From NCBI GenBank assembly GCA_964553055.1, contig CAZKJJ010000001.1:1-27862 (forward strand): a stretch of DNA of 27,862 bases, read 5' to 3'. The notes beneath the pieces were generated by a model. The model was not told the DNA's origin and searched no databases. It saw only the letters and a program-made list of their open reading frames with translations. Position numbers and translations under genes: made by a program. The stretch's first letter is position 1; each line of letters begins with the position of its first letter. The DNA is from an uncultured Acidimicrobiia bacterium. Lineage in GTDB: Bacteria > Actinomycetota > Acidimicrobiia > Spongiisociales > CAZKJJ01. This document shows positions 572-20,314 of this stretch, one piece after another.

Positions 572-997
572 CTAGCTCCCTACGGCCCTTCGGTACTCGA
601 GTATCGATCCGAGGAGGTCTTCCGGAATCGGGATGGGCTTCCAGGTCGGACGGTCTACGAACACCGTGGTGAGATGGGCGAGATAGGTCCTCACGCCGTC
701 CGTCCTGGCTCCTTCGACGCGGAAGGACAGAGACGTCGTCCCTACCTTCTCGACGAAGACGCGACTCTCGAGCGTGTCCTTCGGCGTGACGGGCGCCGAG
801 ATGTCGGCATCGAAGTGAACCCACGGACCCCCGACTTCCCTCTCGACGACCATGTCGTACCAGGAGACTCCGAGGACCTCTTCCCACCACGCCTCGATGG
901 CGTCCATGGCGTAGTCGAGGATTCGCACCGTGTAGGCGATCTGGGCGGTATCGGTGTCTGACCACGTGACCCGCCTCCGGTGGGCGAACGTCTCCAC
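572..997 (-). CDS. Acyl-CoA thioesterase, hot-dog fold (4HBT/YbgC-like)
   Basis: 141 aa. N-terminal RVTWSDTDTAQIAY matches the V.W.DTD..G 4HBT-type motif, and VEKVGTTSLSFRV is also typical. The GTG start lies 2 nt after the boxB stop. Confidence 0.85.
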   Translation of the reverse strand: METFAHRRRVTWSDTDTAQIAYTVRILDYAMDAIEAWWEEVLGVSWYDMVVEREVGGPWVHFDADISAPVTPKDTLESRVFVEKVGTTSLSFRVEGARTDGVRTYLAHLTTVFVDRPTWKPIPIPEDLLGSILEYRRAVGS

Positions 998-999
998 CG

Positions 1000-2439
1000 T
1001 CAGGCGACCAGCCGCACGTATTCGAAGTCACCTGGCCTGTTGTCGATGCCCGAGCGTGGCGGGGCGATCCACGAGGCGAAGCCGTTCAGCGTTGGTCGCG
1101 CCATGAGCTCGGAGATGAAGGCTGCGTCATCGGCTGTGGGTAGGAACTCGCCTCGTCGAGCCTCCCAGGCGCTCTCGCCGGTGAGCTCTCCTTCGGGAGT
1201 CACGTGGAGCCCAGCGAACTGGCCGATCTGTCGATGGAACGACACATGGGGAAGCGTCACCTCGAAGTCGACTTCCTCCTGCGCGATCGTCTTGTTGAAT
1301 CTGTCGATGCCTCGTGAGCAGTTCGTGATGAAGTCATCGCGGAGGCGGGCGTTGAGAGCGGTCAGCGCGGGCTCGTCGACCACGTCGAACCGGCCATCGA
1401 CATGCTGGAGCACTGGGTAGGTGTCTTCTGCGAGCATGTGGTCGTCTGCGATCTTCGCCTCCTGGAACCGCCCTTTGAGGCCTGCGCTGAAGGCCTTGGC
1501 GGCGTTGGTCGACAGCTCCGACCCGAACAGGTCCAACGTCAAGGAGTAGTGGAGGTTGGCCTTCCTTTGGATGAGGGGAAGGTCGATCACGCCCAACTTG
1601 CGTATGGCTTCGACATCGTATGGGTCCTCGATGCCCGCGCTGCGCATCGACTGGCACGTGCTCTTGATGATCCTGGTGATGCCGGACTCCCCAACGAACA
1701 TGTGGAAGGCCTCTTCGGTCAGCATGAAGCGGCAGGTCCGCGACAGCGGATCGAAGCCCGACTCGGCGAGGGCTCCGAGCTGCATGCGGCCGTCCCTGTC
1801 TGTGAAGAACGTGAAGAGGAAGAACGAGAGCCAGTCGGGGGTCTCCTCGTTGAACGCTCCCAGAATGCGGGGCTTGTCGATGTCTCCTGATTGTCTGCGT
1901 AGCAGCTCCTCGGACTCCTCTCGCCCGTCCCTTCCGAAGTACCGCTGGAGGAGGTACACCATCGCCCAGAGGTGGCGGCCCTCCTCCACGTTGACTTGGA
2001 AAAGGTTCCGCATGTCGTAGAGCGAAGGGGCGGTCTTCCCGAGGTATCGCTGCTGCTCGACGGAGGCAGGCTCGGTGTCGCCCTGGACGACGACGAGCCT
2101 ACGCAGAAGCGCCCTGTGCTCGCCTGGCACCTCCTGCCAGGCGGGCTCGCCGCGGTGCACGCCACAGGGGACACGCCTGTCCTCGACGGCAGGGGCCAGC
2201 AGGATGCCCCATCGGTACTCTGGCATGCGGACGTAGTCGAAACGGGCCCAACCCCTAGGGTCGACACTGACTGCGGTCCTCAGGTAGACGAGTGCCTCCT
2301 GGAACCCGTCCGGTCCCATCCGCATCCACCAGTCCAGATATCCGGGATGCCACGACTCGAGCGCCCTGCGCAGCCTGGCGTCGTCAGCCAGGCCCACGTT
2401 GTTGGGGATGCGCTGGTCATAGTCGACGTCGCCGCTCAC
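1000..2439 (-). CDS. boxB: Benzoyl-CoA 2,3-epoxidase, diiron subunit BoxB
   Basis: 479 aa. Recognised BoxB sequence: IPNNVGL, VYLRTAVSVDPRGWARFDYVRMPEYRWGI, VQGDTEPASVEQQR, and diiron ExxH motifs VEEGRHLWAM and TEEAFHMFVGE. SD GGAG is 5 nt before the GTG. Confidence 0.96.
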   Translation of the reverse strand: MSGDVDYDQRIPNNVGLADDARLRRALESWHPGYLDWWMRMGPDGFQEALVYLRTAVSVDPRGWARFDYVRMPEYRWGILLAPAVEDRRVPCGVHRGEPAWQEVPGEHRALLRRLVVVQGDTEPASVEQQRYLGKTAPSLYDMRNLFQVNVEEGRHLWAMVYLLQRYFGRDGREESEELLRRQSGDIDKPRILGAFNEETPDWLSFFLFTFFTDRDGRMQLGALAESGFDPLSRTCRFMLTEEAFHMFVGESGITRIIKSTCQSMRSAGIEDPYDVEAIRKLGVIDLPLIQRKANLHYSLTLDLFGSELSTNAAKAFSAGLKGRFQEAKIADDHMLAEDTYPVLQHVDGRFDVVDEPALTALNARLRDDFITNCSRGIDRFNKTIAQEEVDFEVTLPHVSFHRQIGQFAGLHVTPEGELTGESAWEARRGEFLPTADDAAFISELMARPTLNGFASWIAPPRSGIDNRPGDFEYVRLVA

Positions 2440-2455
2440 AGGCGCTCCTCGTTCG

Positions 2456-2494
2456 TGTCAATGGAGCCACCGAAATCCGACGCCTCCATTGACA
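2456..2494. repeat. Perfect 11-bp inverted repeat in the boxC-boxB intergenic spacer
   Basis: TGTCAATGGAG (2456-2466) and CTCCATTGACA (2484-2494) with a 17-nt loop. Confidence 0.85.
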
Positions 2495-2503
2495 GGAAAC
2501 CGG

Positions 2504-4150
2504 TCATGCTCGATCGCGATCATACGCAGGCGGCTGTCCCGTCCCGTACCGGCGCAGAGCTCCCTCGTCTCCGGCCGCGTTCGGACGCGAGAACACCCAG
2601 TTCTGCCATGCGGACAGCCTCCCGAAGATCTTCGTCTCGATCGTCTCGGGACCTGCGAACCGCAGGTTCGCCTCCATGGCACTGAGCGAGTCCGGGGAGA
2701 AACTCGCTCTCTCCTCGACAGCCAGCCTCAGCTCGTCTTCCCACTCGACCTCATCGAAGGCGTACGTCACGAGACCGGCAGCCAGAGCGGCCTGAGCGTC
2801 GAGGTGCACACCGACCAAGGACCTGACGTGGTCGATCCCCTCCGGATGTCCCCAGAACCTCGTCTCGAGGCGGGAGATGCCGTTGGACATGGGAAACGCC
2901 CCGAGATTGGAGGGAGTGAGCTGCAGGGATGGGGCCGGCTCGTCGCCTCCTTCCCGAGCCCCCTCGAACATGTACGTCCTGTCCGCGGCGAGCGCCAGCT
3001 CTGCGAGCAGGCCAACGAAGCAGCTTCCAGGCTCTATGAGCGCGAACGCGGTCCGCGAGCCGATGTCCAGTCGCTTGAGCGTCCTCTTCCAGTACAGAAC
3101 GATCTCCCGCACCAGCCAGTCAGACGTGTGCTGGACGAGGAAGGCGTCGTGGCCTGCCACGAGGTCGGGGGCTCCCTCGGTCTCGAGTAACAGCAAACCG
3201 ATCTCCGGCTCGTTGACTCGCATGTGCAGCAGGGCGTCATCCAGCTCCCTGACCAGGGCCAGAGGCCAGTAGCCACTGTCTGTGATCTCATCTGGGCCTT
3301 CCGCAGGCCCCGTTTCGGGCCCACGGAGGGTCAGCGTGGCAGCCCGGCCGGCTCTGTCGATCGCCACGTCCAGATGGGAGTACGAGATGCGATCGGACTC
3401 GACCTCTCGTCGGAGCGGCGTGAGATCGAGGCCCTTGGCGTCTCGAGGTCGATCGCTGGTCTCGGCCATCGCGAGGGCTCGCTCGCGGACAGCATCCTGG
3501 AATCGCGACCTGGGCACGACCTCGTCCACCAGGCCCCATTCGACGGCTCTTGGCCCCTTCACACCCTCTTCGATCGTGCAGAAGACATCTGCCCTGTCGC
3601 GCCGTACGAGCCGCTTGTCCGTCAACCGGGTGAGACCGCCTGTCCCGGGGAGGACGGCAAGCAGCGGAACTTCCGGCATCGACACGCCCGAGCTGCCGTC
3701 GTCCGTCAAGATGAGGTAGTCGCAGGCCAACGCCAGCTCGTAGCCGCCCCCAGCCGCATTGCCGTTGATGGCAGCCACGTAACGCTGGCCTGACTGCTGA
3801 GAGGCGTCCTCGATGGCGTTGCGTGTCTCGTTCGTGAACTTGCAGAAGTTGACCTTGAAGGAGTGAGCTGCCCTGCCCAGCATCCTGATGTTCGCCCCTG
3901 CACAGAACACCCTGTCGAGAGCTGACGTGATCACCACCGCTCCCACCTCGGGATGCTCGAAGCGGAGCCGTTGCGTGGCATCGTAGAGCTCGATGTCCAC
4001 GCCCAGGTCGTAGGAGTTGAGCCGCAGCTCGTATCCCTCGTCGAGGCCCCCGCTCTCATCGACATCCATGGTGAGGAACGCCAGGGGCGGATCCACGTCG
4101 AGATGCCAATGGCGATACCGGTCAGGCGTCGTCCGGAAGTCGACGGTCAC
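2504..4150 (-). CDS. boxC: 2,3-epoxybenzoyl-CoA dihydrolase BoxC (tandem crotonase fold)
   Basis: 548 aa. Matches BoxC: VDFRTTPDRYRHW, LRLNSYDLGVDIELYDA, FCAGANIRML, GGGYELALACD, PLLAVLPGTGGLTR, and C-terminal TKIFGRLSAWQNWVFSRPNA. Confidence 0.96.
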   Translation of the reverse strand: MTVDFRTTPDRYRHWHLDVDPPLAFLTMDVDESGGLDEGYELRLNSYDLGVDIELYDATQRLRFEHPEVGAVVITSALDRVFCAGANIRMLGRAAHSFKVNFCKFTNETRNAIEDASQQSGQRYVAAINGNAAGGGYELALACDYLILTDDGSSGVSMPEVPLLAVLPGTGGLTRLTDKRLVRRDRADVFCTIEEGVKGPRAVEWGLVDEVVPRSRFQDAVRERALAMAETSDRPRDAKGLDLTPLRREVESDRISYSHLDVAIDRAGRAATLTLRGPETGPAEGPDEITDSGYWPLALVRELDDALLHMRVNEPEIGLLLLETEGAPDLVAGHDAFLVQHTSDWLVREIVLYWKRTLKRLDIGSRTAFALIEPGSCFVGLLAELALAADRTYMFEGAREGGDEPAPSLQLTPSNLGAFPMSNGISRLETRFWGHPEGIDHVRSLVGVHLDAQAALAAGLVTYAFDEVEWEDELRLAVEERASFSPDSLSAMEANLRFAGPETIETKIFGRLSAWQNWVFSRPNAAGDEGALRRYGTGQPPAYDRDRA

Positions 4151-6986: not shown

Positions 6987-7090
6987 CTCCCTGGTCTGTG
7001 AGACCACGCGGGGACAGGGACACGAGCCGTGCCGCTGAGGGCACCTCAGGCCCGGAAATGCCAATATGTCGAAGAAGGGAGGGTCAGGTC

Positions 7091-7555
7091 GTGTATGAAT
7101 GGTGGAAGTTCATCCACCTCGTTGGCGTCGTGGGTTTCATGGCGGCTCACGGGACATCCATGGCGGCCACCTTCCTGGTGCGGAGGCTTCGGGATCCGGC
7201 CAAGATATCGGGGGTCCTCCAGCTGAGCGGCGCCACCGTGGGCGCGTTCTACGTGTTCACCCTCCTGCTTCTCCTCGGTGGGATCGCAGCCGGCTTATCG
7301 GGAGGCTGGTTCTCCCGATACTGGATCTGGATCTCGCTCGTCGTCTTCGTGGCCATCGCGGCCATGATGTTCTTCACCGCGAAGCGGTACTTCGACAGGG
7401 TCCGCAAGACCATCACGCTGATCGACGGAGGTACCGCCGTCAGCGATGGCGACTTCGACGCCATTCTCCGGTCAGGACAGCCGACGCTGGTCATCGGCAC
7501 CGGGGCGGTTGGCATACTGTTCATCGTGTACCTGATGGTTCTCAAGCCCTTCTGA
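7091..7555 (+). CDS. Small integral membrane protein, DUF2269-like (about 4 TM helices)
   Basis: 154 aa from GTG 7091, with SD GGGAGG upstream. Pattern YEWWKFIHLVGVV...AAHG, then GGWFSRYWIWISLVVF, ending YLMVLKPF, which is typical of DUF2269-like proteins. Confidence 0.75.
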   Translation: MYEWWKFIHLVGVVGFMAAHGTSMAATFLVRRLRDPAKISGVLQLSGATVGAFYVFTLLLLLGGIAAGLSGGWFSRYWIWISLVVFVAIAAMMFFTAKRYFDRVRKTITLIDGGTAVSDGDFDAILRSGQPTLVIGTGAVGILFIVYLMVLKPF

Positions 7556-8589
7556 TGCCCTACCGTCACATCCTCGTCGGCACGGACGGATCGGATACTG
7601 CCGTGGTGGCCGAACGTGCAGCCGGCGCCCTCGCCTCATCTCTGGGAGCAGACCTGACGATCGTCACGGCATACGAAGACGCCCCAGGCGAGCCCGCGGC
7701 GACTCAGCTCCTCGAGGCGGCGAGCCGGAGGGCGGGCGAGCTGGGTGTCTCGGCAAAGACCGAAGCCAGGCTCGGCAAGCCAACCGAGGCGATCAACACG
7801 TTCGCAGAGGAACGGGGAGTCGACCTGATCGTGGTCGGAGATGTCGGCATGGGAGGGGCCCGCCGGTTCAAGCTCGGTGGTGTCCCCGACCAGGTAGCGC
7901 ATCACACTCCCGTCGACTTCCTCGTCGTCAAGACGACGCGGCCCGAGTCCCGCGGCAAGGGCAGGTACGAGAAGATCCTCGTTGCCACGGACGGCTCCTT
8001 CACGGCAGACCAGGCGACCGGCCGGGGTTACGGGATGGCATCTGCGCTCGGGGCCGCCGTGACGCTCCTCTATGTCGGTGATGAGCTGATCGGGAACATC
8101 GTGCTGCGGGACACGGCCGATCGGCTCGATGACGACGCCATCGAGCAACGCGTCGTGAAGGGCGACCCTGCGGACCGCATCTGCGAGCTGGCGCAAGAAG
8201 AGGCGTTCGATCTCATCGTCGTCGGGAACAAGGGCATGATGGGTACTCGGCGGTTCCTGCTGGCCGCCGTGCCCAACAAGGTGGCGCATGAGGCGACGTG
8301 TGACGTACTCGTCTCGAAGACGGTCGGCCGCTCGCTCCAGGACCTCAAGCCGGGCGAAGGCGGCATCGTCGACGCGGCGGGCCAGAAGATCGCCGCCTAC
8401 GTCGAAGACGATGGAACGCTTCATACCGTCTCCGCCAAGTGCCAGCACCTGGGCTGCACCGTCGGCTGGAACAGCAGGGCGAAGACGTGGGACTGTCCGT
8501 GCCATGGGTCGCGGTACCAATTCGACGGGGCCGTGCTCAACGGGCCGACGACCAAGCCGCTACCTCCCGTGGACGTTTCGGCCGGATAG
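7555..8589 (+). CDS. Tandem universal-stress-protein (USP) domains fused to a C-terminal Rieske [2Fe-2S] domain
   Basis: 344 aa from ATG 7555 (TGATG overlap with the upstream stop). USP1: HILVGTDGSD...DLIVVGDVG. USP2: KILVATDGS...DLIVVGNKG. Rieske boxes CQHLGC and CPCHGSRY. There is no stop or frameshift between the domains. Confidence 0.88.
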   Translation: MPYRHILVGTDGSDTAVVAERAAGALASSLGADLTIVTAYEDAPGEPAATQLLEAASRRAGELGVSAKTEARLGKPTEAINTFAEERGVDLIVVGDVGMGGARRFKLGGVPDQVAHHTPVDFLVVKTTRPESRGKGRYEKILVATDGSFTADQATGRGYGMASALGAAVTLLYVGDELIGNIVLRDTADRLDDDAIEQRVVKGDPADRICELAQEEAFDLIVVGNKGMMGTRRFLLAAVPNKVAHEATCDVLVSKTVGRSLQDLKPGEGGIVDAAGQKIAAYVEDDGTLHTVSAKCQHLGCTVGWNSRAKTWDCPCHGSRYQFDGAVLNGPTTKPLPPVDVSAG

Positions 8590-8641: not shown

Positions 8642-11008
8642 ATGTCAGATGTCGTCGAGTACGAGCACGGCCAGCGGTTTCCAGGCAAGATCGGCCTGAC
8701 CACAGAAGAATCCTCGCCTGCCTGGCCGCAGCCCATCCGTGCCTCCGAGGGGGCGCCGAACGTCATCTTCTTCATCCTCGACGACGTCGGCTATGGGCAG
8801 CTTTCCGTGTTCGGAGGGCTCGTCGAGACACCCAACATCGACAGAGTCGCGGACATGGGCCTCCGCTACTCCAACATGCACACCACGGCGCTGTGCTCGC
8901 CGACCCGTGCGTGCGTCCTCACGGGCCGCAACCATCACTCCAGCGGCGTCGCCTCCATCATGGAGACGGCGACAGGCTATCCCGGCTACGACGCTCGAAT
9001 GCCCTTCGAGAACGGCATGCTGTCTGAGGTGCTCCGCAGCGTCGGGTACAACACCTTCGCGGTGGGCAAGTGGCATCTCAGCCCTTCCGAGGAGAACACC
9101 GCCGCAGGGCCGTTCCACCGGTGGCCGCTGGGTCGCGGCTTCGAGCGCTTCTACGGGTTCCTCGGCGGTGAGACGAACCAGTGGTATCCGGACCTCGTCG
9201 AGGACAACCGGTCGGTCGACGCGCCGAGCCTTCCTGAGGACGGCTACCACCTATCGAGTGATCTGGCGGATCAAGCCATACGGATGATCCTGGACGCCCA
9301 CGTGAACGCTCCTGACAAGCCCTTCTTCCTCTACTACGCCACGGGCTGCGGTCATGCCCCGCATCACGTCCCCACGGAGTGGGCCGACCGATACGCAGGC
9401 AGATTCGACGAGGGCTGGGACCACTATCGGGAGCAGGTCTTGGAGCGTCAGAAGGAGCTCGGCCTCATCCCGGAGGACGCCGAGCTGTCACCACGTGACC
9501 CCGACGTCCCTGAGTGGGACGCGCTGGACGAGGACGCCAGACGCCTCTACGCCAGGTTCATGGAGGTCTACGCAGGCTTCGTCAGCTACACCGACCACCA
9601 CTTCGGACGGATCCTCGACACGCTCCAGGAGATCGGCGAGCTCGACAACACCATCATCATGATCCTCTCAGACAACGGCGCCTCCGCCGAGGGCGGGCCC
9701 GTCGGATCGCACAACGAGATGATGTTCTTCAACAATGTCGCCGAATCGACCGAGGACAACCTGGCCAAGATCGAAGAGCTGGGCGGCCCGCTGTCCTACA
9801 ACCACTACCCGTGGGGCTGGGCCTGGTCAGGCAACACTCCGTTCCGGCGGTGGAAGCGCGAGACGTACCGAGGCGGAGCCACCGATCCCTTCATCATGGC
9901 CTGGCCGAGAGGCATCACAGCCCGAGGTGAGGTCAGGACCCACTACGCCCATGCCATCGACATGATGCCGACCATCCTGCACGTGCTGGGGATCGACCCA
10001 CCCACGGCCATTCGAGGCGTGGCCCAGTCGCCCTTGGAAGGCGTCTCGTTCGCTCCTTCCTTCGACAACCCGGATGCGGCGTCCGAGCACACCACCCAGT
10101 ACTTCGAGATGTTCGGTCACCGAGCGATCGACCACGACGGATGGAGGGCCGTCTGTCCGTGGCCGGGGACGAACTTCACCGCGGCGGCCGCCAAGGGGAG
10201 GCAGTTCGGCTCTCCGATCACCTCGGAGGTCCTCGACGAGCTCGAGACCGAGGCCTGGGGGCTGTATCACATCTCGGAGGATCCCACGGAGTCGCACAAC
10301 GTTGCTTCTGAACACCCCGAGAAGCTCAGGGAGCTGATCGCCCTCTGGTGGGTCGAGGCAGGCAAGTACAAGGTCCTCCCCATTGACGGCGACGTGAGGT
10401 CACGGCTCGTGGTCGACCGTCCCATGACCTCGCGACCCAGAACGCGCTTCTCCTTTTACCCGGGTCTCTCGGTCATCCCTCAACCGGCCACGCCCAAGAC
10501 GGCTAACCGCCCGCACAGTATCGAGGCGGATGTGACCATCCCTGCGGCAGGAGCCGAGGGGACCCTGATTGCGCAGGGAGGCGCAGCAGGAGGGTTCGCG
10601 TTCTACGTCAAGGACGGCCTCCTTCACTACGTCCTCAACTACGTTGCCAAGGACTTCTTCAAGGTGACGTCGACGGGGCCCGTGCCTGAAGGGCGGCACT
10701 CCCTCCGCTTCGAGTTCGAGCCGACGGGACCCCCTGACCTGGCTGCAGGCAAGGGCGCACCGGGCCGCTTCCGCCGCTTCAGCCGCGAGTGGATGGTGGG
10801 CGAGACGGAGGTACCACACACCACCCCCATGATGTACGAGCTCGAAGGCCTTTCATGCGGGTACGACTTCGGGGCCCCTGTCCTTGCGCACGAATACGAC
10901 CCGCCGTTCGCTTTCACAGGAGTCATCCACGAGGTCGTGATCGATGTCGGCGGCGACCTGATCCAAGACGACGAAGCCGAGGTGCGCCGCGTGATGGCCC
11001 AGCAATAG
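8642..11008 (+). CDS. Arylsulfatase (Cys-type, formylglycine-dependent)
   Basis: 788 aa from ATG 8642 (SD GGAG upstream). GAPNVIFFILDDVG, signature ALCSPTRACVLTGRNHH, GKWHL, SDNGAS. The ORF-track start at 8288 overlaps the upstream gene and is rejected. Confidence 0.93.
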   Translation: MSDVVEYEHGQRFPGKIGLTTEESSPAWPQPIRASEGAPNVIFFILDDVGYGQLSVFGGLVETPNIDRVADMGLRYSNMHTTALCSPTRACVLTGRNHHSSGVASIMETATGYPGYDARMPFENGMLSEVLRSVGYNTFAVGKWHLSPSEENTAAGPFHRWPLGRGFERFYGFLGGETNQWYPDLVEDNRSVDAPSLPEDGYHLSSDLADQAIRMILDAHVNAPDKPFFLYYATGCGHAPHHVPTEWADRYAGRFDEGWDHYREQVLERQKELGLIPEDAELSPRDPDVPEWDALDEDARRLYARFMEVYAGFVSYTDHHFGRILDTLQEIGELDNTIIMILSDNGASAEGGPVGSHNEMMFFNNVAESTEDNLAKIEELGGPLSYNHYPWGWAWSGNTPFRRWKRETYRGGATDPFIMAWPRGITARGEVRTHYAHAIDMMPTILHVLGIDPPTAIRGVAQSPLEGVSFAPSFDNPDAASEHTTQYFEMFGHRAIDHDGWRAVCPWPGTNFTAAAAKGRQFGSPITSEVLDELETEAWGLYHISEDPTESHNVASEHPEKLRELIALWWVEAGKYKVLPIDGDVRSRLVVDRPMTSRPRTRFSFYPGLSVIPQPATPKTANRPHSIEADVTIPAAGAEGTLIAQGGAAGGFAFYVKDGLLHYVLNYVAKDFFKVTSTGPVPEGRHSLRFEFEPTGPPDLAAGKGAPGRFRRFSREWMVGETEVPHTTPMMYELEGLSCGYDFGAPVLAHEYDPPFAFTGVIHEVVIDVGGDLIQDDEAEVRRVMAQQ

Positions 11009-11506: not shown

Positions 11507-11923
11507 TCAGCGACGCAGCCGACGCTCCCGGCGCCATACGAGACGAAGGGCCGACCACGTCTCGTCGACTGCACACACCTTGTTGTCGACCAGACCCAGC
11601 GGTAGTGCCAACCTGCGGACCCCGTCCTCCGTGAGGTCGGTGGCGATCCGGGCCGACCGCTTGGGCCAAGCCGCCCAGACAGCGCCGTCAGGAAAGACTG
11701 CCTCGGCTGCCGAGTCGATTCGTCCTGCCAGCGAGCTCCCATCTGCCGCGAAGACGATCACGATGTCGGGATCTCTGCCGATCGACTTCCTCAGCCGCAC
11801 GCCGTCGGGCAGCGGATCCAGTAGTCCCCTGAAGCCTTCCGGCTCCCCGAGAACCGCGACTCTCATGCCGGCTCCGATACCGAGCTTCCTGGCGAGGGGT
11901 GTTCCCGAGTACCCGGCCTTCAT
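11507..11923 (-). CDS. DUF3052-like protein
   Basis: 138 aa. AGYSGTPLARKLGI, VWAAWPKR, LGLVDNKVCAVDETWSALRLVWR are characteristic of this family. Confidence 0.8.
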   Translation of the reverse strand: MKAGYSGTPLARKLGIGAGMRVAVLGEPEGFRGLLDPLPDGVRLRKSIGRDPDIVIVFAADGSSLAGRIDSAAEAVFPDGAVWAAWPKRSARIATDLTEDGVRRLALPLGLVDNKVCAVDETWSALRLVWRRERRLRR

Positions 11924-12033
11924 CGTGGTCCAATACTTGCTCCCTCGACGTCACAGCTGCCAGGACTGTGGGCCTCGACGGGCAACCGTCTGCCGATGTT
12001 GCCTCCCGTGCCATGTCGTGGAACACTCATCCC

Positions 12034-13095
12034 ATGGTTGAGCTGGCAGCCGACGAGGGGATCTCGGCGCTCGAGCTCGGCCTGGCGACGCGTAACCGGG
12101 GAATGCCGCTCGAGGCGCTGCGTCATGACGTCACGCCCGTCGGGCTCCACTACCTACTGGCACATTTCGACATTCCCGCCATCGACGAGCAGTCGTGGCG
12201 GCTGAGTGTGTCGGGTGAGGTGGAGAGTGACCTGGATCTGACGATCGAGGACATCCGCCACCGCCCCTCGAGCACGATCCCGGTGACGATGGAGTGTGCT
12301 GGCAATGGGAGGGCGCGGCTCCAGCCCCGTCCGGTGTCGCAGCCCTGGCTACACGAGGCGACCAGCACGGCATCGTGGACGGGTACCCCGCTGCCTGGCA
12401 TTCTCGAGGAGGCCGGCATCGGACTGGACGCCGTCGAGATTGTCTTCACGGGAGCCGACCACGGGATCGAGGGCGGCGAAGAGCTCGACTACCGAAGGTC
12501 CCTCCCGTTGTCCGAGGCCATGCGCCCGGAGGTGCTGCTGGCGTACGAGATGAACGGCTCCGCACTGCAGCCGCAGCACGGTTTCCCGCTGCGGCTCCTC
12601 GTCCCAGGGTGGTACGGGATGACGAGCGTGAAGTGGTTGACGGACATCGAGGTGGTCGCTGAGCCGTTCGCAGGATTTCATCAAGCGGTCGCCTATCGAT
12701 ACCAGCAAACGGAAGACGATCCAGGCGAGCCTGTTACCCGGATCCGTCCCCGAGCCCTGATGATCCCCCCCGGCTTTCCCGACTTCCCCGAGCGGCACAG
12801 GTACGTGGACGCAGGCCCCGTCATGCTCGAGGGCCGGGCCTGGAGCGGGATGGCTCCGATCACCAGGGTCGAGGTCGCGATCGATGGCCAATGGTCAGAG
12901 GCGAAGCTCCACAAACCGGTCGGAGAGTGGGCCTGGCGGCGCTGGTCGTATCAGTGGGAGGCCGAGCCGGGCCTGCATGTGCTCACGTGCCGGGCAACCG
13001 ACAGCTCAGGCGAGACACAGCCGCTGACCCAACCGTGGAACCACCAGGGGATGGGCAACAACCTCATCCAGGAGGTTACCGTCACCGTCCGCTGA
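12034..13095 (+). CDS. Sulfite oxidase family molybdopterin oxidoreductase (Mo-co domain plus dimerisation domain)
   Basis: RNRGMPLEALRHDVTPVGLHY, Mo-ligand Cys in MECAGNGRA, AYEMNG, HGFPLRLLVPGWYGMTSVKWL, CRATD, WNHQGMGNN. No signal peptide is visible. Start at ATG 12034 or 12013; the ORF-track start at 11899 overlaps a divergent gene. Confidence 0.9.
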   Translation: MVELAADEGISALELGLATRNRGMPLEALRHDVTPVGLHYLLAHFDIPAIDEQSWRLSVSGEVESDLDLTIEDIRHRPSSTIPVTMECAGNGRARLQPRPVSQPWLHEATSTASWTGTPLPGILEEAGIGLDAVEIVFTGADHGIEGGEELDYRRSLPLSEAMRPEVLLAYEMNGSALQPQHGFPLRLLVPGWYGMTSVKWLTDIEVVAEPFAGFHQAVAYRYQQTEDDPGEPVTRIRPRALMIPPGFPDFPERHRYVDAGPVMLEGRAWSGMAPITRVEVAIDGQWSEAKLHKPVGEWAWRRWSYQWEAEPGLHVLTCRATDSSGETQPLTQPWNHQGMGNNLIQEVTVTVR

Positions 13096-14335: not shown

Positions 14336-15583
14336 TCAATCCGGCTCGCTGCCGAGCTTCCCCTCGAGGAAGTAGGTTTCCATGAATCCCTTGCCTTTGA
14401 CCTCCAGGGGCCCACGCGCCGTGAACCGGTAGCGGTCTCTCAGCTTCTGGTAGACCGCTTCTGTCGTCTGGATCTCGCCTGGTACTCCCTGCGACTCCAT
14501 CCGGGCTGCTGTGTTCACCGTGTCACCCCAGAGGTCATAGCTGAACTTGCGCTTCCCGATGACTCCTGCGACCACAGAGCCGGTGTGGAAGCCGTATCGC
14601 ATCTCGAGTGACCCGACCCCCTCCAAGGAGTGCTTGGCCAGCTCGGCGTCCATCGCCAGGGCGACATCCGCAACGGCCTCTACGTGGTCGGGCCGTGCGT
14701 TCGGTAGGCCCCCTACCACCATGTAGGCGTCGCCGATCGTCTTGATCTTCTCCAGGTCCATGCGATCGACGAGGTCGTCGAACGAGCTGAAGATCTCGTT
14801 GAGGAATTCGACCCAACGGCTTGGAGAAAGCTGTTCGGACAGAGACGTGGAGCCGACGAGATCAGCGAAGAGGATCGTGACGCCTTCGACACGGTCCGCG
14901 ATGACCTCTTCGCCTCGTTTGAGGCGAGCTGCGATGTCCTCGGGGAGGATGTTGAGGAGAAGGCGCTCCGACTTTTCCTGCTCGAGCTCTAAAGCGAGCC
15001 GCGATCGCTCTCGCTCCCGTATGAAGAAGCGCAGTGCGATGAAGAGTATGAAGGCGATCCCGAGGAAGTTCGCCACGAACATCCCGGTGATCACGGTCTG
15101 CGGGACGTATGGTGCCGCTGATCGCAACGAACCGTCTATGAGTCCTGAAAGGGCCGCCAGGGCTGAGAATCCCACGAACCATGGAGTGGCGAGGGCGCCC
15201 ACCAAGGAGGCGAGCAGCGGGGAGCCGAGCGCCCACATCGCCACCGCGCTTCCGTTGGCAAAACCCCCCAGGCTCCATTGCAGGAGAAACGGCAGAACGA
15301 GCCACATGGCCATCTGCGAGGACCTGAAGAGGCGGAATCGTCCGGTGCGGACCATCAACACCAGCCCGACCCCTGAGCCGACCACGTAGATGAGCGGTAT
15401 GGCCGCCGAGACGAAGAGACCGAGAAGCGCGTACATCACGGACCAGACGGCCACAACTGGTGCGGTGATCGTGGTGATGACGACGTGTGTCGACTTGAAG
15501 GCCCTCTCTTGGGCGGTGTCCGAGGAGGTTGCGCCAATCCCGACGAGCCTCTGCAGTGCGTTGCCGATTCCCTCGCCGGACAC
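14336..15583 (-). CDS. Membrane-bound class III adenylate cyclase (about 6 TM helices, signalling helix, catalytic domain)
   Basis: About six hydrophobic segments, then EKSERLLLNILP. All canonical residues are present: FADLVGS, KIKTIGDAY, SYDLWGDTVNTAARMES. The Lys/Asp pair indicates ATP specificity. Confidence 0.93.
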   Translation of the reverse strand: MSGEGIGNALQRLVGIGATSSDTAQERAFKSTHVVITTITAPVVAVWSVMYALLGLFVSAAIPLIYVVGSGVGLVLMVRTGRFRLFRSSQMAMWLVLPFLLQWSLGGFANGSAVAMWALGSPLLASLVGALATPWFVGFSALAALSGLIDGSLRSAAPYVPQTVITGMFVANFLGIAFILFIALRFFIRERERSRLALELEQEKSERLLLNILPEDIAARLKRGEEVIADRVEGVTILFADLVGSTSLSEQLSPSRWVEFLNEIFSSFDDLVDRMDLEKIKTIGDAYMVVGGLPNARPDHVEAVADVALAMDAELAKHSLEGVGSLEMRYGFHTGSVVAGVIGKRKFSYDLWGDTVNTAARMESQGVPGEIQTTEAVYQKLRDRYRFTARGPLEVKGKGFMETYFLEGKLGSEPD

Positions 15584-15641: not shown

Positions 15642-17006
15642 TCAGCCCCATCTGACCGGCTGCACCTCGACCTCTTGGTCGATGCCCTTGGCGGGAATGG
15701 TGTGCACGGGCCCGTACGAGAAGGGGCCGCTCGCGCGGGCAGCCACACGTGGAGTGACCAGGATCTCGTCGGCTTCGGCGGCGGCCGCCACTCGCGCTGT
15801 CTTGTGGACCTCCAGACCGGATATGCCCTGTGAATCTCGGGTGAACACGCCTGAGTTGACACCGATGCGCACTCTGGGAGCGTATCCGGCTCGTCTCCTG
15901 TGGCTCTCCAGCTCCCGCTGGATCTCGACGGCGCACCCGACGGCGGCGGTCTCATCGCCAAAGGTGGCGAGAAATCCGTCTCCTGTGTTCGATACGACCT
16001 CTCCGCTGCTTGCTGCGATCAGATCCTGCAACGTCCGGTCGTGCCACCGAATCACATGGGTCCACGCCTCGTCCCCGATGGCGCTGACCATCTTCGTCGA
16101 ATCGACGATGTCGGTCATAAGCAGCGCCGCCCAGCTGCCCTTCGGCTTGAAGGTCGGCTCGGGTGTGGCTTGCAGGAACTCCATCATCTCGGCCAGCAGG
16201 ACTTGCCAGGCAGGCTCCTTCTCCAAAGGAAGATGATTGTCGCTGTCGAGTTGGACCAGCCTCGCTCCAGGAATGAGAGAGGCCAGCAGGCGGCCTTCCG
16301 CAAAAGACACCCTCAGGTCACCCCGGGAGTGCAGGACGAGAGTCGGGACTTCAACCTCCGAAGCCCGTTGCGAGACATCGATGTTCGCAAAGACCCTGAA
16401 CAGCGCCAACGCGTTCTCTCCTGACACAGATTGGCGCATGAGCTCGTCGAACCACGCGTGCTGGTGGGCGGTGCCGCTAGGGATGAATTGGGAGGTGAAC
16501 ACATGACGGAACGTGGCGTCATCCGTACCCCACCCAACGGTGACGAGCTGTTCGAACAGGTCGGCTTCTCGTTCCGCTCCCTGGCTTCCCCGGCGTCTTC
16601 TTCCGCGCCCGTAGGCGCCGATCATGACCAGATGCGACACCCGCTCTGGATGCCTCACTGCATACTCGGTGGCGATCGACCCACCCTGCGAGATACCCAG
16701 GAGCGGGAAACGGTCAACTCCCGCGGCATCGACAACAGCTTCGAGATCAGCCACCAGATCCTCGAAGGTGATATCGGCAACATCCCGATCCGACAAACCG
16801 GTCCCTCGCTCGTCATATCGCACCAGGGTGAACCGAGATGAGAGGGCCTCCAGGTAGTGTCTCCAGACGGGACTCTCGAAGTCGTATTCGAGGTGGGTCA
16901 GCCAGTTGGCCGCCTTGACCAAGGCGGGTCCCGATCCCGTGACGGCGTAGCCCAGGCGTACGCCGTCGTCCGCCACACAGAACCGAATCTCCTGCCCGGT
17001 CGGCAT
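15642..17006 (-). CDS. Alpha/beta-hydrolase fused to a class III cyclase domain (non-canonical active site)
   Basis: N-terminal ANWLTHLEYD...YDERGTGLSD, nucleophile GISQG and His in DNHLP. C-terminal MTDIVDST, SNTGDGFLATF, RIGVNSG, GLEVHKTARV. Start at ATG 17006 (alternative 17024). Confidence 0.88.
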   Translation of the reverse strand: MPTGQEIRFCVADDGVRLGYAVTGSGPALVKAANWLTHLEYDFESPVWRHYLEALSSRFTLVRYDERGTGLSDRDVADITFEDLVADLEAVVDAAGVDRFPLLGISQGGSIATEYAVRHPERVSHLVMIGAYGRGRRRRGSQGAEREADLFEQLVTVGWGTDDATFRHVFTSQFIPSGTAHQHAWFDELMRQSVSGENALALFRVFANIDVSQRASEVEVPTLVLHSRGDLRVSFAEGRLLASLIPGARLVQLDSDNHLPLEKEPAWQVLLAEMMEFLQATPEPTFKPKGSWAALLMTDIVDSTKMVSAIGDEAWTHVIRWHDRTLQDLIAASSGEVVSNTGDGFLATFGDETAAVGCAVEIQRELESHRRRAGYAPRVRIGVNSGVFTRDSQGISGLEVHKTARVAAAAEADEILVTPRVAARASGPFSYGPVHTIPAKGIDQEVEVQPVRWG

Positions 17007-17341
17007 CGGTCGGCAGTTTGCCATGCCTCATCGAGCGAGCGCCTGGCACAGCGCCGAGTCAGGCGCTGAACCCGTTCGTAGTCCTTGGCCGAGACACTGG
17101 GAGACGAGCTGCCCGGCTGGCGGGGTGAAGGTCAGTCAGGCAAGGTGCTGTGCCAGGAGCCAGTCGAGGAGCGGTGGGCGCTCCACGATTCCCAGACGAG
17201 GCGATCAGAGGCGTCGGGGGGCTGTGGCACTTGCATGCAGCAATGGCAGAGGCTGTCGAGACACCGTCGGGGCCTTCGAAGCAGATCACGCTCACCGATC
17301 CTCAGAGTCGCCCATTCAGGTTGGCGGTACACTGAAACCGG

Positions 17342-17755: not shown

Positions 17756-18022
17756 CGGGTTGGTCGAGGCGTCCATGGCGCGCCCAGATGGGGTTCAGTC
17801 CCGGCTGTATGTGGAGTCGCCGCGGACGGCGCGTCGGGGAGACATCCATGATGGTCGTTTCTCTTTGCGGGCAAGGCACCAGAGCCGTCGGAACCTCGCG
17901 CGCGTCCGCAATCTCGGTTGGTGTGACATGTCGATGAGACCTCGACACGGATGTGAAGCTGCTCGGTGTCAGAGCATGTCGGGTTCCTCGGGATGAGGCG
18001 GTCCGGCTGTAGCTTCTTTCCG

Positions 18023-18976
18023 GTGAGCGCTGGTGGCGCAAAGGCTGGTGTTGGGTTACCCGATCGTCTGACGCTCTTGGCGTTTGTCGGCGTGGTTGCG
18101 ATCGCTGGTGCCAACTTCGTAGCCGTGCGCTTTGCCAACGAGGATGTTGCCCCGTTCTTCGGGGCTGGCCTGCGGTTCTCGATCGCGTGGCTGCTACTTC
18201 TGGTGGCGGCGATTGTGGTCAGAGTTCCAACTCCCAGCAGGGAGGAGCTGGTCGGGACTGTGCTCTATGGCATCCTCGCCTTTGGTGGCTCGATGGCGCT
18301 TGGCTACTGGGCGCTCCTGCGCCTTCCCGCTGGGATCGCCGGAGTGATCATCGCGGCAGTTCCGGTGTTGACACTGTTGCTGGCCCGGGTTCATGGTCTC
18401 GAGCCGTTCCGTTGGCGGGGACTGCTCGGCGGCCTCCTCACGGTGGGTGGCATATGGGTGCTCCTCGCCGGTTCGGGATCCGCGCCCGTACCGATAGGCT
18501 CCGCCCTGGCGATGGTTGGAGCGGCGTTTTGCTTCGCTGAGGCCGGGATCGTGATCAAGAAGTTCCCGCCCTGTCATCCTATGGCCTCCAACGGGCTCGC
18601 CATGTCCATCGGTGCGGCCCTGCTACTGGTGCTCTCGCAGGTATTCGGCGAGTCCTGGTCGCTGCCGACGAGAGAGGGAGTATGGCTGGTGCTGGCCTAC
18701 ATCGTGCTGGTCGGATCTGTGGCGCTGTTCGGCATGTATCTGTTTGTGCTCAAGGGCTGGACGGCCTCAGGAGCCTCGTACCAGTTCGTTCTGATGCCGT
18801 TCGTCGCCGCGCTGCTCGGTGCCTGGCTGCTCGGTGAGACCATCAACGGCGGATTCGTGATTGGGGGCTTGATCGTCCTCACTGGCGTCTACGTCGGAGC
18901 TCTCTCCTCGGGCTCGGTTCCCGTTCCTGCAACACCCGAGCAGGAAGCGCAGGCACAACGATGCTCCACTACCTAG
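18023..18976 (+). CDS. DMT superfamily (EamA-like) transporter
   Basis: About 10 hydrophobic helices in two EamA repeats (GANFVAVRF, AGLRF, YWALLRLPAGIAGVIIAAVP, LLGAWLLGE). GTG 18023 is preceded by TAGCTT at 18010-18015. Confidence 0.9.
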   Translation: MSAGGAKAGVGLPDRLTLLAFVGVVAIAGANFVAVRFANEDVAPFFGAGLRFSIAWLLLLVAAIVVRVPTPSREELVGTVLYGILAFGGSMALGYWALLRLPAGIAGVIIAAVPVLTLLLARVHGLEPFRWRGLLGGLLTVGGIWVLLAGSGSAPVPIGSALAMVGAAFCFAEAGIVIKKFPPCHPMASNGLAMSIGAALLLVLSQVFGESWSLPTREGVWLVLAYIVLVGSVALFGMYLFVLKGWTASGASYQFVLMPFVAALLGAWLLGETINGGFVIGGLIVLTGVYVGALSSGSVPVPATPEQEAQAQRCSTT

Positions 18977-19081
18977 CCGCACGGAACCCCCCCAACAAGT
19001 CGCCTGCCCACGGATCCAACCGCCACCTCGTTCGTGGGTGACGTCGGTGTCTTGTTGGCAGATCCGCGGGACGGAGGCCGC

Positions 19082-20314
19082 TTACTCGAGGTCGGCGCGT
19101 TCCCAGTAGGGCCGCGTCACTCGCCCCCAGGCCAGCCCGAACACCAGGCCGATCACTCCCAGGCCGACGATCAACGGACGGAGTGGCCCAACCTCGGCGA
19201 GCGCGCCCACCGCGAGAGCGGAGATCGAGATCGCCAACGTGTCCAGACCGAAGTCGAGAGCGAAGATCCTGCCTCTGATGTCGTCCGGACACAGCTCCTG
19301 AAGACCGTAGCTGGAGAAGGCGAACTGGGTACCCCCGCCCATGTGGCCGACACAGATGAGAACAGCGGCGACCGCCAGGGCGGGGGCAGCCCCCACTCCC
19401 ATGTAGGCGGCCCCCCATAGCGCCATCGCGTAACCGATCGCCTCGAACGTGCGCCGCTTCGACGGGCCGACCAGCCGGAAGGCAAGGATCGGGCCCACGA
19501 GGTTGCCCAGGCCCCTGGCGCCGAACAGTATCCCGGTCCCCGCATCTCCGGCATCGAAGAGCCTGAACGAGACGACGGCGAAGAGCCCGACGGCGCCCCC
19601 TGCAGTGAGGGCGTGACCCGCCTTGGAGGTGAGCAGTGCCGTCACCCGGCGGTCCCCGACCGCGTAGCGGAGGGCGTCCCGGGTGGACTCGACGAATCCT
19701 GCGGTCGCGGTCCGGAACGGTTCCTGCAGCCGGATTCCGATGCGAGCGATGAAGGCGGCAGAGACCAGAAACGAAACAGCATTGACCGCAAACGCGGCGT
19801 CGCGCGACACCGCTGCTGCGAACAGCCCTCCGAGAGCCGCGCCGATCGCGAGCATCGCACCCCACGCTGAAGACATAAGCACATTGGCCGCCGCCAGCTC
19901 GTCCTTGACGACGACATTGGGTAGCGCTCCGCCGGAGGCGGCGTAGAAGAAGGCGGCCCCCGCTCCCTCGAGCGACATCACCAGCAGGGGAAACCAGACG
20001 CCGGGAATGGCGTCGGCGGCGAGCAGGCTCAGGGCGAGTCCGGCCCTGATCACGTCAGAGCCGATGAGGACCCTCTTGCGGTCGAACCGGTCGGCTGTGA
20101 GTCCCGTGAGGGGGGCAAGCAGGAGGGCGGGAAGGGCCTGGGCGGCGAGCACCGCGGCAGCCGCCAGCGGCGAGCCAGATGCTTCGTAGACCAGGCCCAG
20201 GAGCGGGACGACCAGGAACCAGTCCCCGGCAAAGGAGATCAACCGGGCGAGGTAGAGGCGCCTGAAGGCTGCGTTGTCGCGGACGAGGCGCCAGTAGACC
20301 GGGTAACTCGCCAT
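19082..20314 (-). CDS. MFS transporter (DHA3/EntS-like)
   Basis: 410 aa with about 12 TM segments. MFS motif A GLTADRFDRKRVLIGSD, RLISFAGDW and DDIRGRIFA. Confidence 0.9.
   Translation of the reverse strand: MASYPVYWRLVRDNAAFRRLYLARLISFAGDWFLVVPLLGLVYEASGSPLAAAAVLAAQALPALLLAPLTGLTADRFDRKRVLIGSDVIRAGLALSLLAADAIPGVWFPLLVMSLEGAGAAFFYAASGGALPNVVVKDELAAANVLMSSAWGAMLAIGAALGGLFAAAVSRDAAFAVNAVSFLVSAAFIARIGIRLQEPFRTATAGFVESTRDALRYAVGDRRVTALLTSKAGHALTAGGAVGLFAVVSFRLFDAGDAGTGILFGARGLGNLVGPILAFRLVGPSKRRTFEAIGYAMALWGAAYMGVGAAPALAVAAVLICVGHMGGGTQFAFSSYGLQELCPDDIRGRIFALDFGLDTLAISISALAVGALAEVGPLRPLIVGLGVIGLVFGLAWGRVTRPYWERADLE

Follow-up and report, generated by a model that had tools for sequence, protein, structure and literature searches.

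A tandem universal stress protein-Rieske fusion and its DUF2269-family membrane partner in uncultured Actinomycetota: a candidate electron-transfer module

Two overlapping genes and their products

We analysed a 27,862-nucleotide (nt) stretch of DNA from an uncultured Acidimicrobiia bacterium (GenBank assembly GCA_964553055.1, contig CAZKJJ010000001.1, positions 1 to 27,862), hereafter called the window. Our subject is a pair of genes on its forward strand. The first, at 7091-7555, encodes a DUF2269-family membrane protein of 154 residues with four transmembrane (TM) helices (P0122). The second, at 7555-8589, encodes a protein of 344 residues (P0001) in which two universal stress protein (USP) domains, USP1 and USP2, are followed by a Rieske [2Fe-2S] domain. 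The TGA stop codon of the first gene (7553-7555) overlaps the ATG start codon of the second by one base.

The fusion gene is one open frame that runs from ATG 7555 to TAG 8587-8589. Pfam matched P0001 to the universal stress protein family (Usp, PF00582) with an E-value of 1.7e-47 and a score of 162 bits, well above the gathering cut-off of 24 and with matches in both halves of the protein, and to the Rieske family (PF00355) at residues 262-337 (E 3.2e-12; 46.6 bits vs a cut-off of 20.3). The initial annotation had described an uninterrupted frame with two USP domains followed by a Rieske domain, and both the frame and the Pfam matches bear this out. On the DNA, USP1 comprises residues 1-130 (7555-7944), USP2 residues 137-258 (7963-8328) and the Rieske domain residues 262-344 (8338-8586). 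The frame stays open on the 5' side as far as an ATG at 7099, but we rejected this long start, which overlaps the DUF2269 gene in another frame. We take ATG 7555 to be the start, because a product of 344 residues fits the homolog lengths (322-366 residues) and the homologs begin at this position.

The AlphaFold2 model of P0001, built with 73 homologs (predicted local distance difference test score, pLDDT, 89.8; predicted template-modelling score, pTM, 0.86), consists of two alpha/beta USP domains and then a small all-beta domain. When the model was compared with the PDB using Foldseek, residues 1-258 matched the tandem USPs TTHA0350 and Rv2623, which confirms the tandem-USP fold, and the tail matched the soluble domain of a Chlorobaculum Rieske protein. 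The whole-chain structural search of the PDB returned no solved chain with a tandem USP and a Rieske domain together. NCBIfam gave only partial, sub-threshold matches, to the b6f PetC family over the last 70 residues and to single-domain USPs elsewhere. The first USP strand stands at the very N-terminus of P0001, which has no signal peptide or membrane anchor.

Both USP domains are closest in sequence to Rv1636 and MSMEG_3811 (PDB ID codes 1tq8 and 5ahw), which are the best PDB sequence matches of USP1 (E 4.5e-13); the top match of the whole protein is 5ahw (E 2e-13), with the best stretch in USP2. Unlike P0001, Rv1636 and MSMEG_3811 are single-domain, abundant soluble proteins. In structure, residues 1-258 are like the tandem USPs TTHA0350 (3ab7/3ab8) and Rv2623 (3cis/2jax), with Foldseek E-values of 1.8e-16 to 1e-12 and TM-scores by target of 0.68-0.83. 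In neither of these two proteins does a further domain follow the second USP; both have the complete ATP motif, and neither is known to pair with a membrane protein, whereas P0001 adds a Rieske domain.

The statement in the initial annotation that USPs bind adenine nucleotides was not borne out in that general form. The motif of the ATP-binding USP subclass (MJ0577 type), G-x2-G-x9-G-(S/T), is incomplete in both domains, and we rejected assignment of either one to that subclass. In USP1, the motif reads G95-x2-G98-x9-G108-G109, and the S/T position is occupied by Gly in 63 of the 73 homologs. In USP2 of the window's protein, it reads G224-x2-G227-x9-A237-A238, and the family varies at these last two positions (R, G or A at 237; V, A or S at 238). 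USP1 retains G9 (69/73 homologs) and G98 (70/73), the equivalents of the cyclic AMP (cAMP)-contacting Gly-10 and Gly-114 of Rv1636/MSMEG_3811 (PMC11107214). USP2 has Ala at the first contact-glycine (Gly-10) position, and its D146-G-S-x-T-A and G224-N-K-G227 segments are invariant. Judged from these residues, nucleotide binding by the USP domains is plausible, more so for USP1.

In the Rieske domain, box I reads C296-Q-H298-L-G-C301 and box II reads C314-P-C316-H317-G-S319-R-Y321. C296, H298, C301, C314, C316, H317, G318 and S319 are invariant in all 73 homologs, whereas Y321 is retained in 65 and replaced by Phe in 8. The four cluster ligands, the two disulfide cysteines and the Ser/Tyr pair that the initial annotation had recognized are thus conserved throughout this alignment, apart from the Phe in those eight homologs. 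With its profile match and its C-x-H and C-x2-H ligands the domain is a Rieske [2Fe-2S] domain, and it has the extra Cys pair, the Ser and the Tyr that make up the sequence signature of the high-potential, bc1/b6f-type Rieske proteins. In known proteins, centres with this pattern of boxes have a loop disulfide and an elevated potential, and P0001 may be expected, from its sequence, to have both.

The same C-x-H-x-G-C and C-x-C-H-G-S-x-Y boxes, with their disulfide cysteines and Ser/Tyr pair, are found in PetC and the b6f/bc Rieske subunits and in the soluble domain of the Chlorobaculum tepidum Rieske protein (8hn2), which is the best PDB Rieske match and to which P0001 is 39% identical over 77 aligned residues. 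Unlike the PetC-type subunits, however, P0001 has neither an N-terminal anchor nor a twin-arginine translocation (Tat) signal, and so would be cytoplasmic rather than located at the outer face; its Rieske domain is minimal (~83 residues), and no cytochrome b gene adjoins it. An identity as the iron-sulfur subunit of a b6f or bc1 complex was rejected because the anchor is absent, the neighbours are not cytochrome b and the NCBIfam equivalog scores fall below their cut-offs (PetC, 62.6 vs 250; Rieske_proteo, 38.8 vs 97.4; actinobacterial QcrA, 21.6 vs 275).

Beyond its own family, the Rieske module of P0001 is most like those at the C-termini of ~510-540-residue FAD oxidoreductases of the DAO family (YhfW type), to which it is 48-59% identical. 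The initial annotation had noticed a likeness to this C-terminal module, and indeed the best Rieske-only matches are such C-termini. One of the loci (L065) is DAO plus Rieske by Pfam, and a Bacillus example is 54% identical to P0001 over 79 residues. YhfW also shares the strand-loop ahead of box I (L..GEG..V...G...A.Y). In a published description it is an FAD-linked oxidoreductase whose C-terminal Rieske domain has no known function (PMC7317962), and like P0001 it is a cytoplasmic protein in which a nucleotide-binding, Rossmann-type body is fused to a bc-type Rieske domain and to which no function has been assigned (PMC7317962). The body is a DAO-family FAD domain in YhfW and two USP domains in P0001. 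Since Pfam finds no DAO or FAD domain in P0001, and the Rieske module alone is shared, we rejected its classification as a YhfW-type FAD-Rieske fusion. None of the YhfW-type loci that we examined has a DUF2269 neighbour.

The gene for the membrane partner is preceded by a Shine-Dalgarno-like AAGGGAGGG at 7075-7083 on the forward strand, read from the sequence and located 7 nt before a GTG at 7091. This GTG is the likely start, because the resulting product of 154 residues fits the homologs, most of which have 155, and is also among the proteins called for the window itself. P0122 belongs to DUF2269 (PF10027) marginally, with 29.0 bits against a cut-off of 28, and its homologs score 25-47 bits. 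In the literature, DUF2269 is mentioned merely as an unknown membrane domain (PMC4562309). The AlphaFold2 model of P0122 (pLDDT 90.3) has helices at residues 2-32, 36-71, 77-112, 119-127 (a short loop helix) and 131-151. Loops 1 and 3 have on average 8.2 Lys and Arg residues, as against 1.9 for the termini and loop 2, and based on the positive-inside rule both termini would lie outside, with loops 1 and 3 in the cytoplasm.

A profile search with the partner, covering 1.84 billion representatives, returned 534 clusters at E<=1e-10, and we counted conserved residues in the best 150 of these (50%-identity representatives). His9 and His20, which are 11 residues apart in TM1, are present in 147/147, Met149 and Pro153 at the end of TM4 in 128/128, Trp78 in 147/148 and Met93 in 134/147. 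Judged from helix registers rather than from coordinates, His20 and Met93 would sit deeper in the membrane than His9 and Met149, which would be close to the outer face. Some partner homologs have weak Pfam matches to UPF0093 (HemJ), with E-values of ~1e-3 and 19 bits against a gathering score of 34; P0122 itself has no UPF0093 match at E 0.05 or better. HemJ, a protoporphyrinogen oxidase and small haem-b-binding membrane protein, resembles the partner in that a His near the beginning of TM1 is conserved. The weak top Foldseek rows of P0122 include cytochrome bd and hydrogenase cytochrome b, but these matches are at chance level and were not used as evidence.

Distribution of the fusion and its pairing with the membrane protein

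Among 5.8 billion proteins searched, at least 120 are full-length homologs of P0001; they are 53-68% identical to it and 322-366 residues long, and all contain both PF00582 and PF00355. Most come from metagenome-assembled genomes (MAGs) labelled Acidimicrobiia or Actinomycetota, and the databases name them merely "universal stress protein". The linker from USP2 to the Rieske domain (KTVGRS..DL.PGEG; 8320-8358, forward strand) is among the best-kept stretches of the homolog alignment, with T256, V257, L264, P266 and G267 invariant or at least 90% conserved. It might be argued that a chimeric assembly or a missed stop codon has joined a tandem USP gene to a small Rieske gene, given that the source MAG is fragmented (684 contigs, 84% complete) and that the public reads (three runs, yielding just 151-258-nt unitigs at depth 2-3) leave 8254-8538 uncovered, but such an artefact is effectively excluded by the homolog set, because at least 120 full-length homologs from many independent assemblies share the conserved linker, ~47 genomes of the phylum sample have matches, and four clusters of the ESM Atlas, commonest in Actinomycetota, contain the same two Pfam families. 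Two unitigs from two of the runs span the gene overlap at 7553-7557.

To describe the distribution of the fusion we relied on whole-genome searches; a search of species-representative genomes (at least six full-length loci) undercounts and was not used for this. The fusion is present in 6 of 41 genomes of the nearest relatives and in 11 of 301 sampled genomes of the window's class, all 11 within the window's order. At the level of the phylum, 51 of 401 sampled genomes match at E<=1e-40, ~47 of them full-length, and the fusion is near-universal in two families (18/21 and 19/22 genomes). The samples from three other phyla, centred on Bacillus, Azospirillum and Acidobacteria genomes, contained none (0/201, 0/201 and 0/151; 553 genomes). 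Among the phyla sampled, the fusion is thus found solely in that of the window and is lineage-restricted. One unpublished genome (G399, the same as G779; loci L108 and L115) is included in the count of 51/401 and in that of 30/31 given below; without it, the counts are 50/400 and 29/30.

We found no published description of the USP-USP-Rieske architecture, in agreement with the initial annotation, whose author knew of no characterised protein of this kind. The taxonomic spread, mapped here, is confined among the phyla sampled to Actinomycetota, where the architecture has no characterised member. A review of CDGSH proteins states that CDGSH domains can co-occur with Rieske domains, and nothing further (PMC5859297).

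Two loci in these samples deserve separate mention. The first (L074, genome G687) bears the NCBI label "Anaerolineae bacterium", yet the genome is placed in the window's phylum, so that either label or placement is inconsistent. A search centred on it as a Chloroflexota sample gave the same genomes as the window's phylum, and we rejected it as an independent phylum. The second (L017; G018:C7:175753-178983) looks like a decayed copy of the pair. In its DUF2269 homolog, similarity ends after ~50 residues, and the fusion is matched in its Rieske part alone (residues 265-342, 66% identity), where a TGA interrupts the matching stretch.

Of 31 distinct loci, which belong to several families, 30 have a DUF2269 homolog next to the fusion gene. 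These loci comprise a first set, drawn from metagenomes, relatives and species-representative genomes, together with 16 loci from the class and phylum, all 16 of which have the partner. In some loci the partner gene comes immediately before the fusion gene on the same strand, overlapping it or separated from it by 0-15 nt (at one locus, by 630 nt); in the others it follows immediately, in convergent orientation, with a gap of about -10 to 46 nt. The other neighbours of the pair differ between loci, and none of at least 60 loci that match only the USP part or only the Rieske part has a DUF2269 homolog. The initial annotation had taken the fusion protein to be soluble. That description was not borne out as it stands, as the gene is translationally coupled to that of a membrane protein and the two are adjacent in 30 of the 31 loci.

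Complex prediction for P0001 with P0122, run on our own alignments, gave weak support for a contact, with a score of 0.53, whereas the best of three controls scored 0.00. Of 80 solved complexes, 58 reach the mark set for this score, as do 2 of 110 mismatched pairs, and passes at 0.60 or less comprise just 7 of the 80 solved complexes and both of these mismatches. The predicted interface, for which USP2 would provide the docking face, pairs USP2 residues 147, 149 and 176-190 with partner residues 102-128, that is, the cytoplasmic TM3-TM4 loop. The predicted contact agrees with the topology of the partner and with the high prior that comes from the coupling of the genes.

Redox domains in relatives and the proposed function of the pair

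In a number of relatives, either protein of the pair carries further redox domains, and such electron-carrier domains have been fused on repeatedly and independently. Two fusion proteins of 785-788 residues (L020, L114) have C-terminal Pyr_redox_2 and Reductase_C domains, a module that NCBIfam matches best to the ferredoxin-NAD+ reductases serving Rieske dioxygenases (E 1e-96, which is below the cut-off for an equivalog). An N-terminal CDGSH-Fer4_19-CDGSH extension is present on the fusion at L007, L015, L016, L024 and L107, and L018 has Fer4_19 and CDGSH at the C-terminus. On the partner, the addition is C-terminal and consists of a cytochrome c domain with CxxCH (L007, L105, L106 and the cluster representatives P0247, P0251, P0252) or of a cupredoxin domain with an H...C-x2-H-x2/3-M motif (L020, L021, L112, L114 and the cluster representatives P0250, P0253, P0256); a fourth cluster representative, P0259, has a Pfam cupredoxin domain that the motif scan missed. 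The reductase-fused forms pair with cupredoxin-fused partners (L020, L114), and the three cytochrome-c-fused partners in the loci go with CDGSH-fused forms. Because c-type cytochromes are matured outside the cytoplasm, the cytochrome c fusions fit a topology in which both termini of the partner are outside.

The window's own genome contains a second, elaborated pair (L007, on contig C288), a paralog of the first. Here a 582-residue CDGSH-Fer4_19-CDGSH-USP-USP-Rieske protein (712-2457, forward strand), 43% identical to P0001 over the shared part, is encoded convergently with a DUF2269 protein that has a C-terminal cytochrome c domain (CAECH; 2478-3206, reverse strand). At L113, a gene at 1117-3027 on the reverse strand encodes two Rieske domains after the tandem USP, in a stop-to-stop frame of 637 residues. 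At L119 (3001-5237), a distant partner-family gene is followed by one for a 553-residue protein with Response_reg, a weakly matched glutaredoxin and Pyr_redox_2 domains, after which comes a histidine-kinase-like gene with a cyclic nucleoside monophosphate (cNMP)-binding domain. This locus repeats the pattern of a regulatory and a redox domain beside a partner-family membrane protein, here with a different regulated redox protein as the neighbour. At L120, a distant partner-family member of 340 residues adjoins a USP gene that is cut by the contig end.

On balance, we favour the view that the pair is a two-gene, membrane-bound electron-transfer module, with the fusion protein as its cytoplasmic half. 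We base this on the near-obligate adjacency of the two genes, the redox fusions found on both proteins, the topology of the partner, and its invariant His9, His20 and Met149 together with the weak UPF0093 similarity. Further support came from the complex prediction, weak as it is, and from the pattern seen at L119. In such a module, the tandem USP would dock via USP2 on the cytoplasmic TM3-TM4 loop of the partner, and the Rieske centre would serve as a cytoplasmic carrier that swaps single electrons with a membrane-held cofactor. This cofactor would be held by His9, His20 and Met149, with haem b as the leading guess and copper as the alternative, and would link up with an acceptor or donor on the outer side. 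In the minimal version present in the window, the ultimate donor and acceptor would be separate proteins, whereas in the relatives they would be fused on, as a reductase or CDGSH/4Fe-4S domains inside and as cytochrome c or a type-1-copper cupredoxin outside. The likeliest flow would be from a cytoplasmic reductant to the outside, as electrons would run downhill in this direction and the membrane potential would favour it. The USP pair, and chiefly USP1, may gate this flow in response to nucleotide; we speculate that outward flow would be wasteful if unregulated, giving a rationale for a regulatory USP. Three of these points are inferred, namely that the partner binds a cofactor, that the USPs bind nucleotide, and which way the electrons flow.

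We also put forward a more specific proposal, to which we give somewhat less than even credence. This DUF2269 subfamily may represent unrecognised four-helix membrane redox proteins, with haem b or Cu at His9/His20/Met149, which together with the cytoplasmic USP-Rieske protein would make up a nucleotide-gated electron-export conduit running from NAD(P)H or Fe-S donors to an outer cupredoxin or cytochrome c in uncultured Actinomycetota. The logic proposed is the same as that of NOX and other ferric-reductase-domain proteins, MsrQ with Fre, cytochrome b561 and DsbD, all of which move cytoplasmic reductant to the outside. It comprises an NAD(P)H/flavin or Fe-S donor inside, a small helical membrane protein with a His-held cofactor, and a one-electron acceptor on the outer side, and the long forms at L020 and L114 would contain a whole such chain in two adjacent genes. 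Unlike these systems, the partner belongs to the four-helix DUF2269 family and has no significant structural match to any of them, and none of them uses a Rieske domain on a tandem-USP scaffold. Each domain of P0001 is from a known family, and the resemblance of the module to known conduits is in logic only. There is a substantial chance that the module defines a new membrane redox protein family.

A number of observations weigh against an electron-transfer role. Most members of the family lack extra redox domains, as do the window's pair and all of the 120 closest homologs, and an outer domain is present in only ~7 of the 150 representatives of the partner and in 7 of 30 loci. One fusion gene (L018) has no partner within the 4 kb examined. 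The model of P0122 has no significant Foldseek match, to haem or copper proteins or to any other (PDB, E 1.2; Swiss-Prot models, E 0.24). A disulfide-bearing, high-potential-type Rieske domain is unusual in the reducing cytoplasm, though YhfW-type proteins share this feature. The complex score of 0.53 falls in a band in which a pass is more likely to be false than true if the prior is not high, and because the predicted interface involves USP2 and not the Rieske domain, no path for electrons from the cluster to the membrane is shown. Lastly, helices rich in His and Met are typical of copper transporters too, in which such residues are the usual copper ligands.

This last point bears on a role in the handling of copper or other metals, in which DUF2269 would be a CopD-like, His/Met-lined transporter or a platform for metallochaperones, and the outer cupredoxin or cytochrome c and the inner Rieske protein would serve metal reduction or delivery rather than form a respiratory-type electron conduit. 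His9, His20, Met149 and Met93, all of them in TM helices, are invariant or almost so, cupredoxin-fold domains are fused at the outer end, and there are weak Pfam matches to DUF2214 and UPF0093, which are presumably clan relatives of CopD. However, the fused cupredoxins carry the ligands of type-1 copper electron-transfer proteins (His, Cys, His, Met) and match plastocyanin and azurin rather than CopC, and where another domain takes their place on the outer side it is a c-type cytochrome. No gene for a copper chaperone, P-type ATPase or CopC recurs near the homolog loci. We therefore regard a metal-handling role as unlikely, and the reduction of metal on the outside would in any case still need electrons to cross the membrane, so that it overlaps with electron transfer by the pair.

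The initial annotation had suggested a soluble sensor. In a cytoplasmic sensor of this kind, the Rieske cluster would report redox state (or O2, NO or reactive oxygen species) and the USPs ATP or cAMP, and the membrane protein would be an anchor or output through which no electrons pass. Both USP domains are closest to the cAMP-binding MSMEG_3811 and Rv1636, and USP1 keeps both contact glycines (PMC11107214). USPs are, moreover, often regulatory appendages of membrane proteins, and TeaD and the C-terminal domains of KCC are among the structural matches of P0001. The window also contains four genes with class III nucleotidyl-cyclase domains (Pfam) within 20 kb, at 14336-15583 (-), 15642-17024 (-), 21206-23989 (-) and 26210-27565 (+), comprising one membrane-type cyclase, two hydrolase-cyclases and one cyclase-STAND-TPR protein. 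Cyclase genes adjoin the pair at one homolog locus (L003) too, but this is just 1 of the 16 tested, and we rejected a conserved cAMP link through neighbouring cyclases. Further, the phosphate-binding S/T of the ATP motif is absent from both USP domains, and an output domain (kinase, DNA-binding or cyclase) is never fused to the protein. What is fused, namely reductase, CDGSH and Fer4_19 domains inside and cytochrome c or cupredoxin outside, consists of electron carriers rather than signalling outputs, and argues for electron throughput and not for pure sensing. The suggestion of a sensor was accordingly not borne out, and we consider it quite unlikely.

A further possibility is that the pair acts as a quinol oxidase that faces the cytoplasm, in which the Rieske domain would take an electron from menaquinol at the four-helix protein and pass it to soluble acceptors. 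Rieske clusters of the bc/b6f type oxidise quinol at a membrane-protein site, and the Rieske domain of P0001 is of this sequence type, with PetC and the Chlorobaculum bc-type Rieske protein in the PDB as its best partial matches. Such a role would leave the outward cytochrome c or cupredoxin on the partner unexplained, and the NADH-reductase fusion would feed electrons into the Rieske domain, not out of it. The predicted contact is made via USP2 and not via the cluster-bearing tip, and a quinone-site motif was not identified in the pair. We consider this role improbable.

If the pair does work as a transmembrane electron-transfer module, it would provide at once a function for proteins widely annotated as "universal stress protein" and one for DUF2269, and would represent a new, compact electron route across the membrane made from parts that are not used by NOX and ferric-reductase-domain proteins, MsrQ, DsbD or b561. 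It would also, for the first time, place a cytoplasmic bc-type Rieske domain in a functional context, a question that hangs over the widespread YhfW-type proteins as well, and would offer a concrete example of a USP that works by docking on, and perhaps gating, a redox protein of the membrane. The lineages concerned are abundant, uncultured Actinomycetota of soil and sediment, and the module may matter for their extracytoplasmic redox chemistry. The natural long forms, in which an NADH reductase-Rieske-USP protein is paired with a DUF2269-cupredoxin protein, make the electron-transfer hypothesis directly testable.

Other genes near the pair

Farther along the window, AT skew swings from -0.34 to +0.25 across 18-20 kb (17966-20314), at the genes for an EamA transporter (forward strand) and an MFS transporter (reverse strand). 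No tandem repeats were found at this swing, which looks ordinary. Directly downstream of the fusion gene lies a gene for a sulfatase-family protein of 788 residues (8642-11008, forward strand). Also near the fusion is a gene for a sulfite-oxidase-like molybdopterin oxidoreductase (11899-13095, forward strand), and molybdoenzymes are encoded nearby at two of the homolog loci (L001, L005), in the form of a molybdopterin oxidoreductase and xanthine-dehydrogenase subunits.

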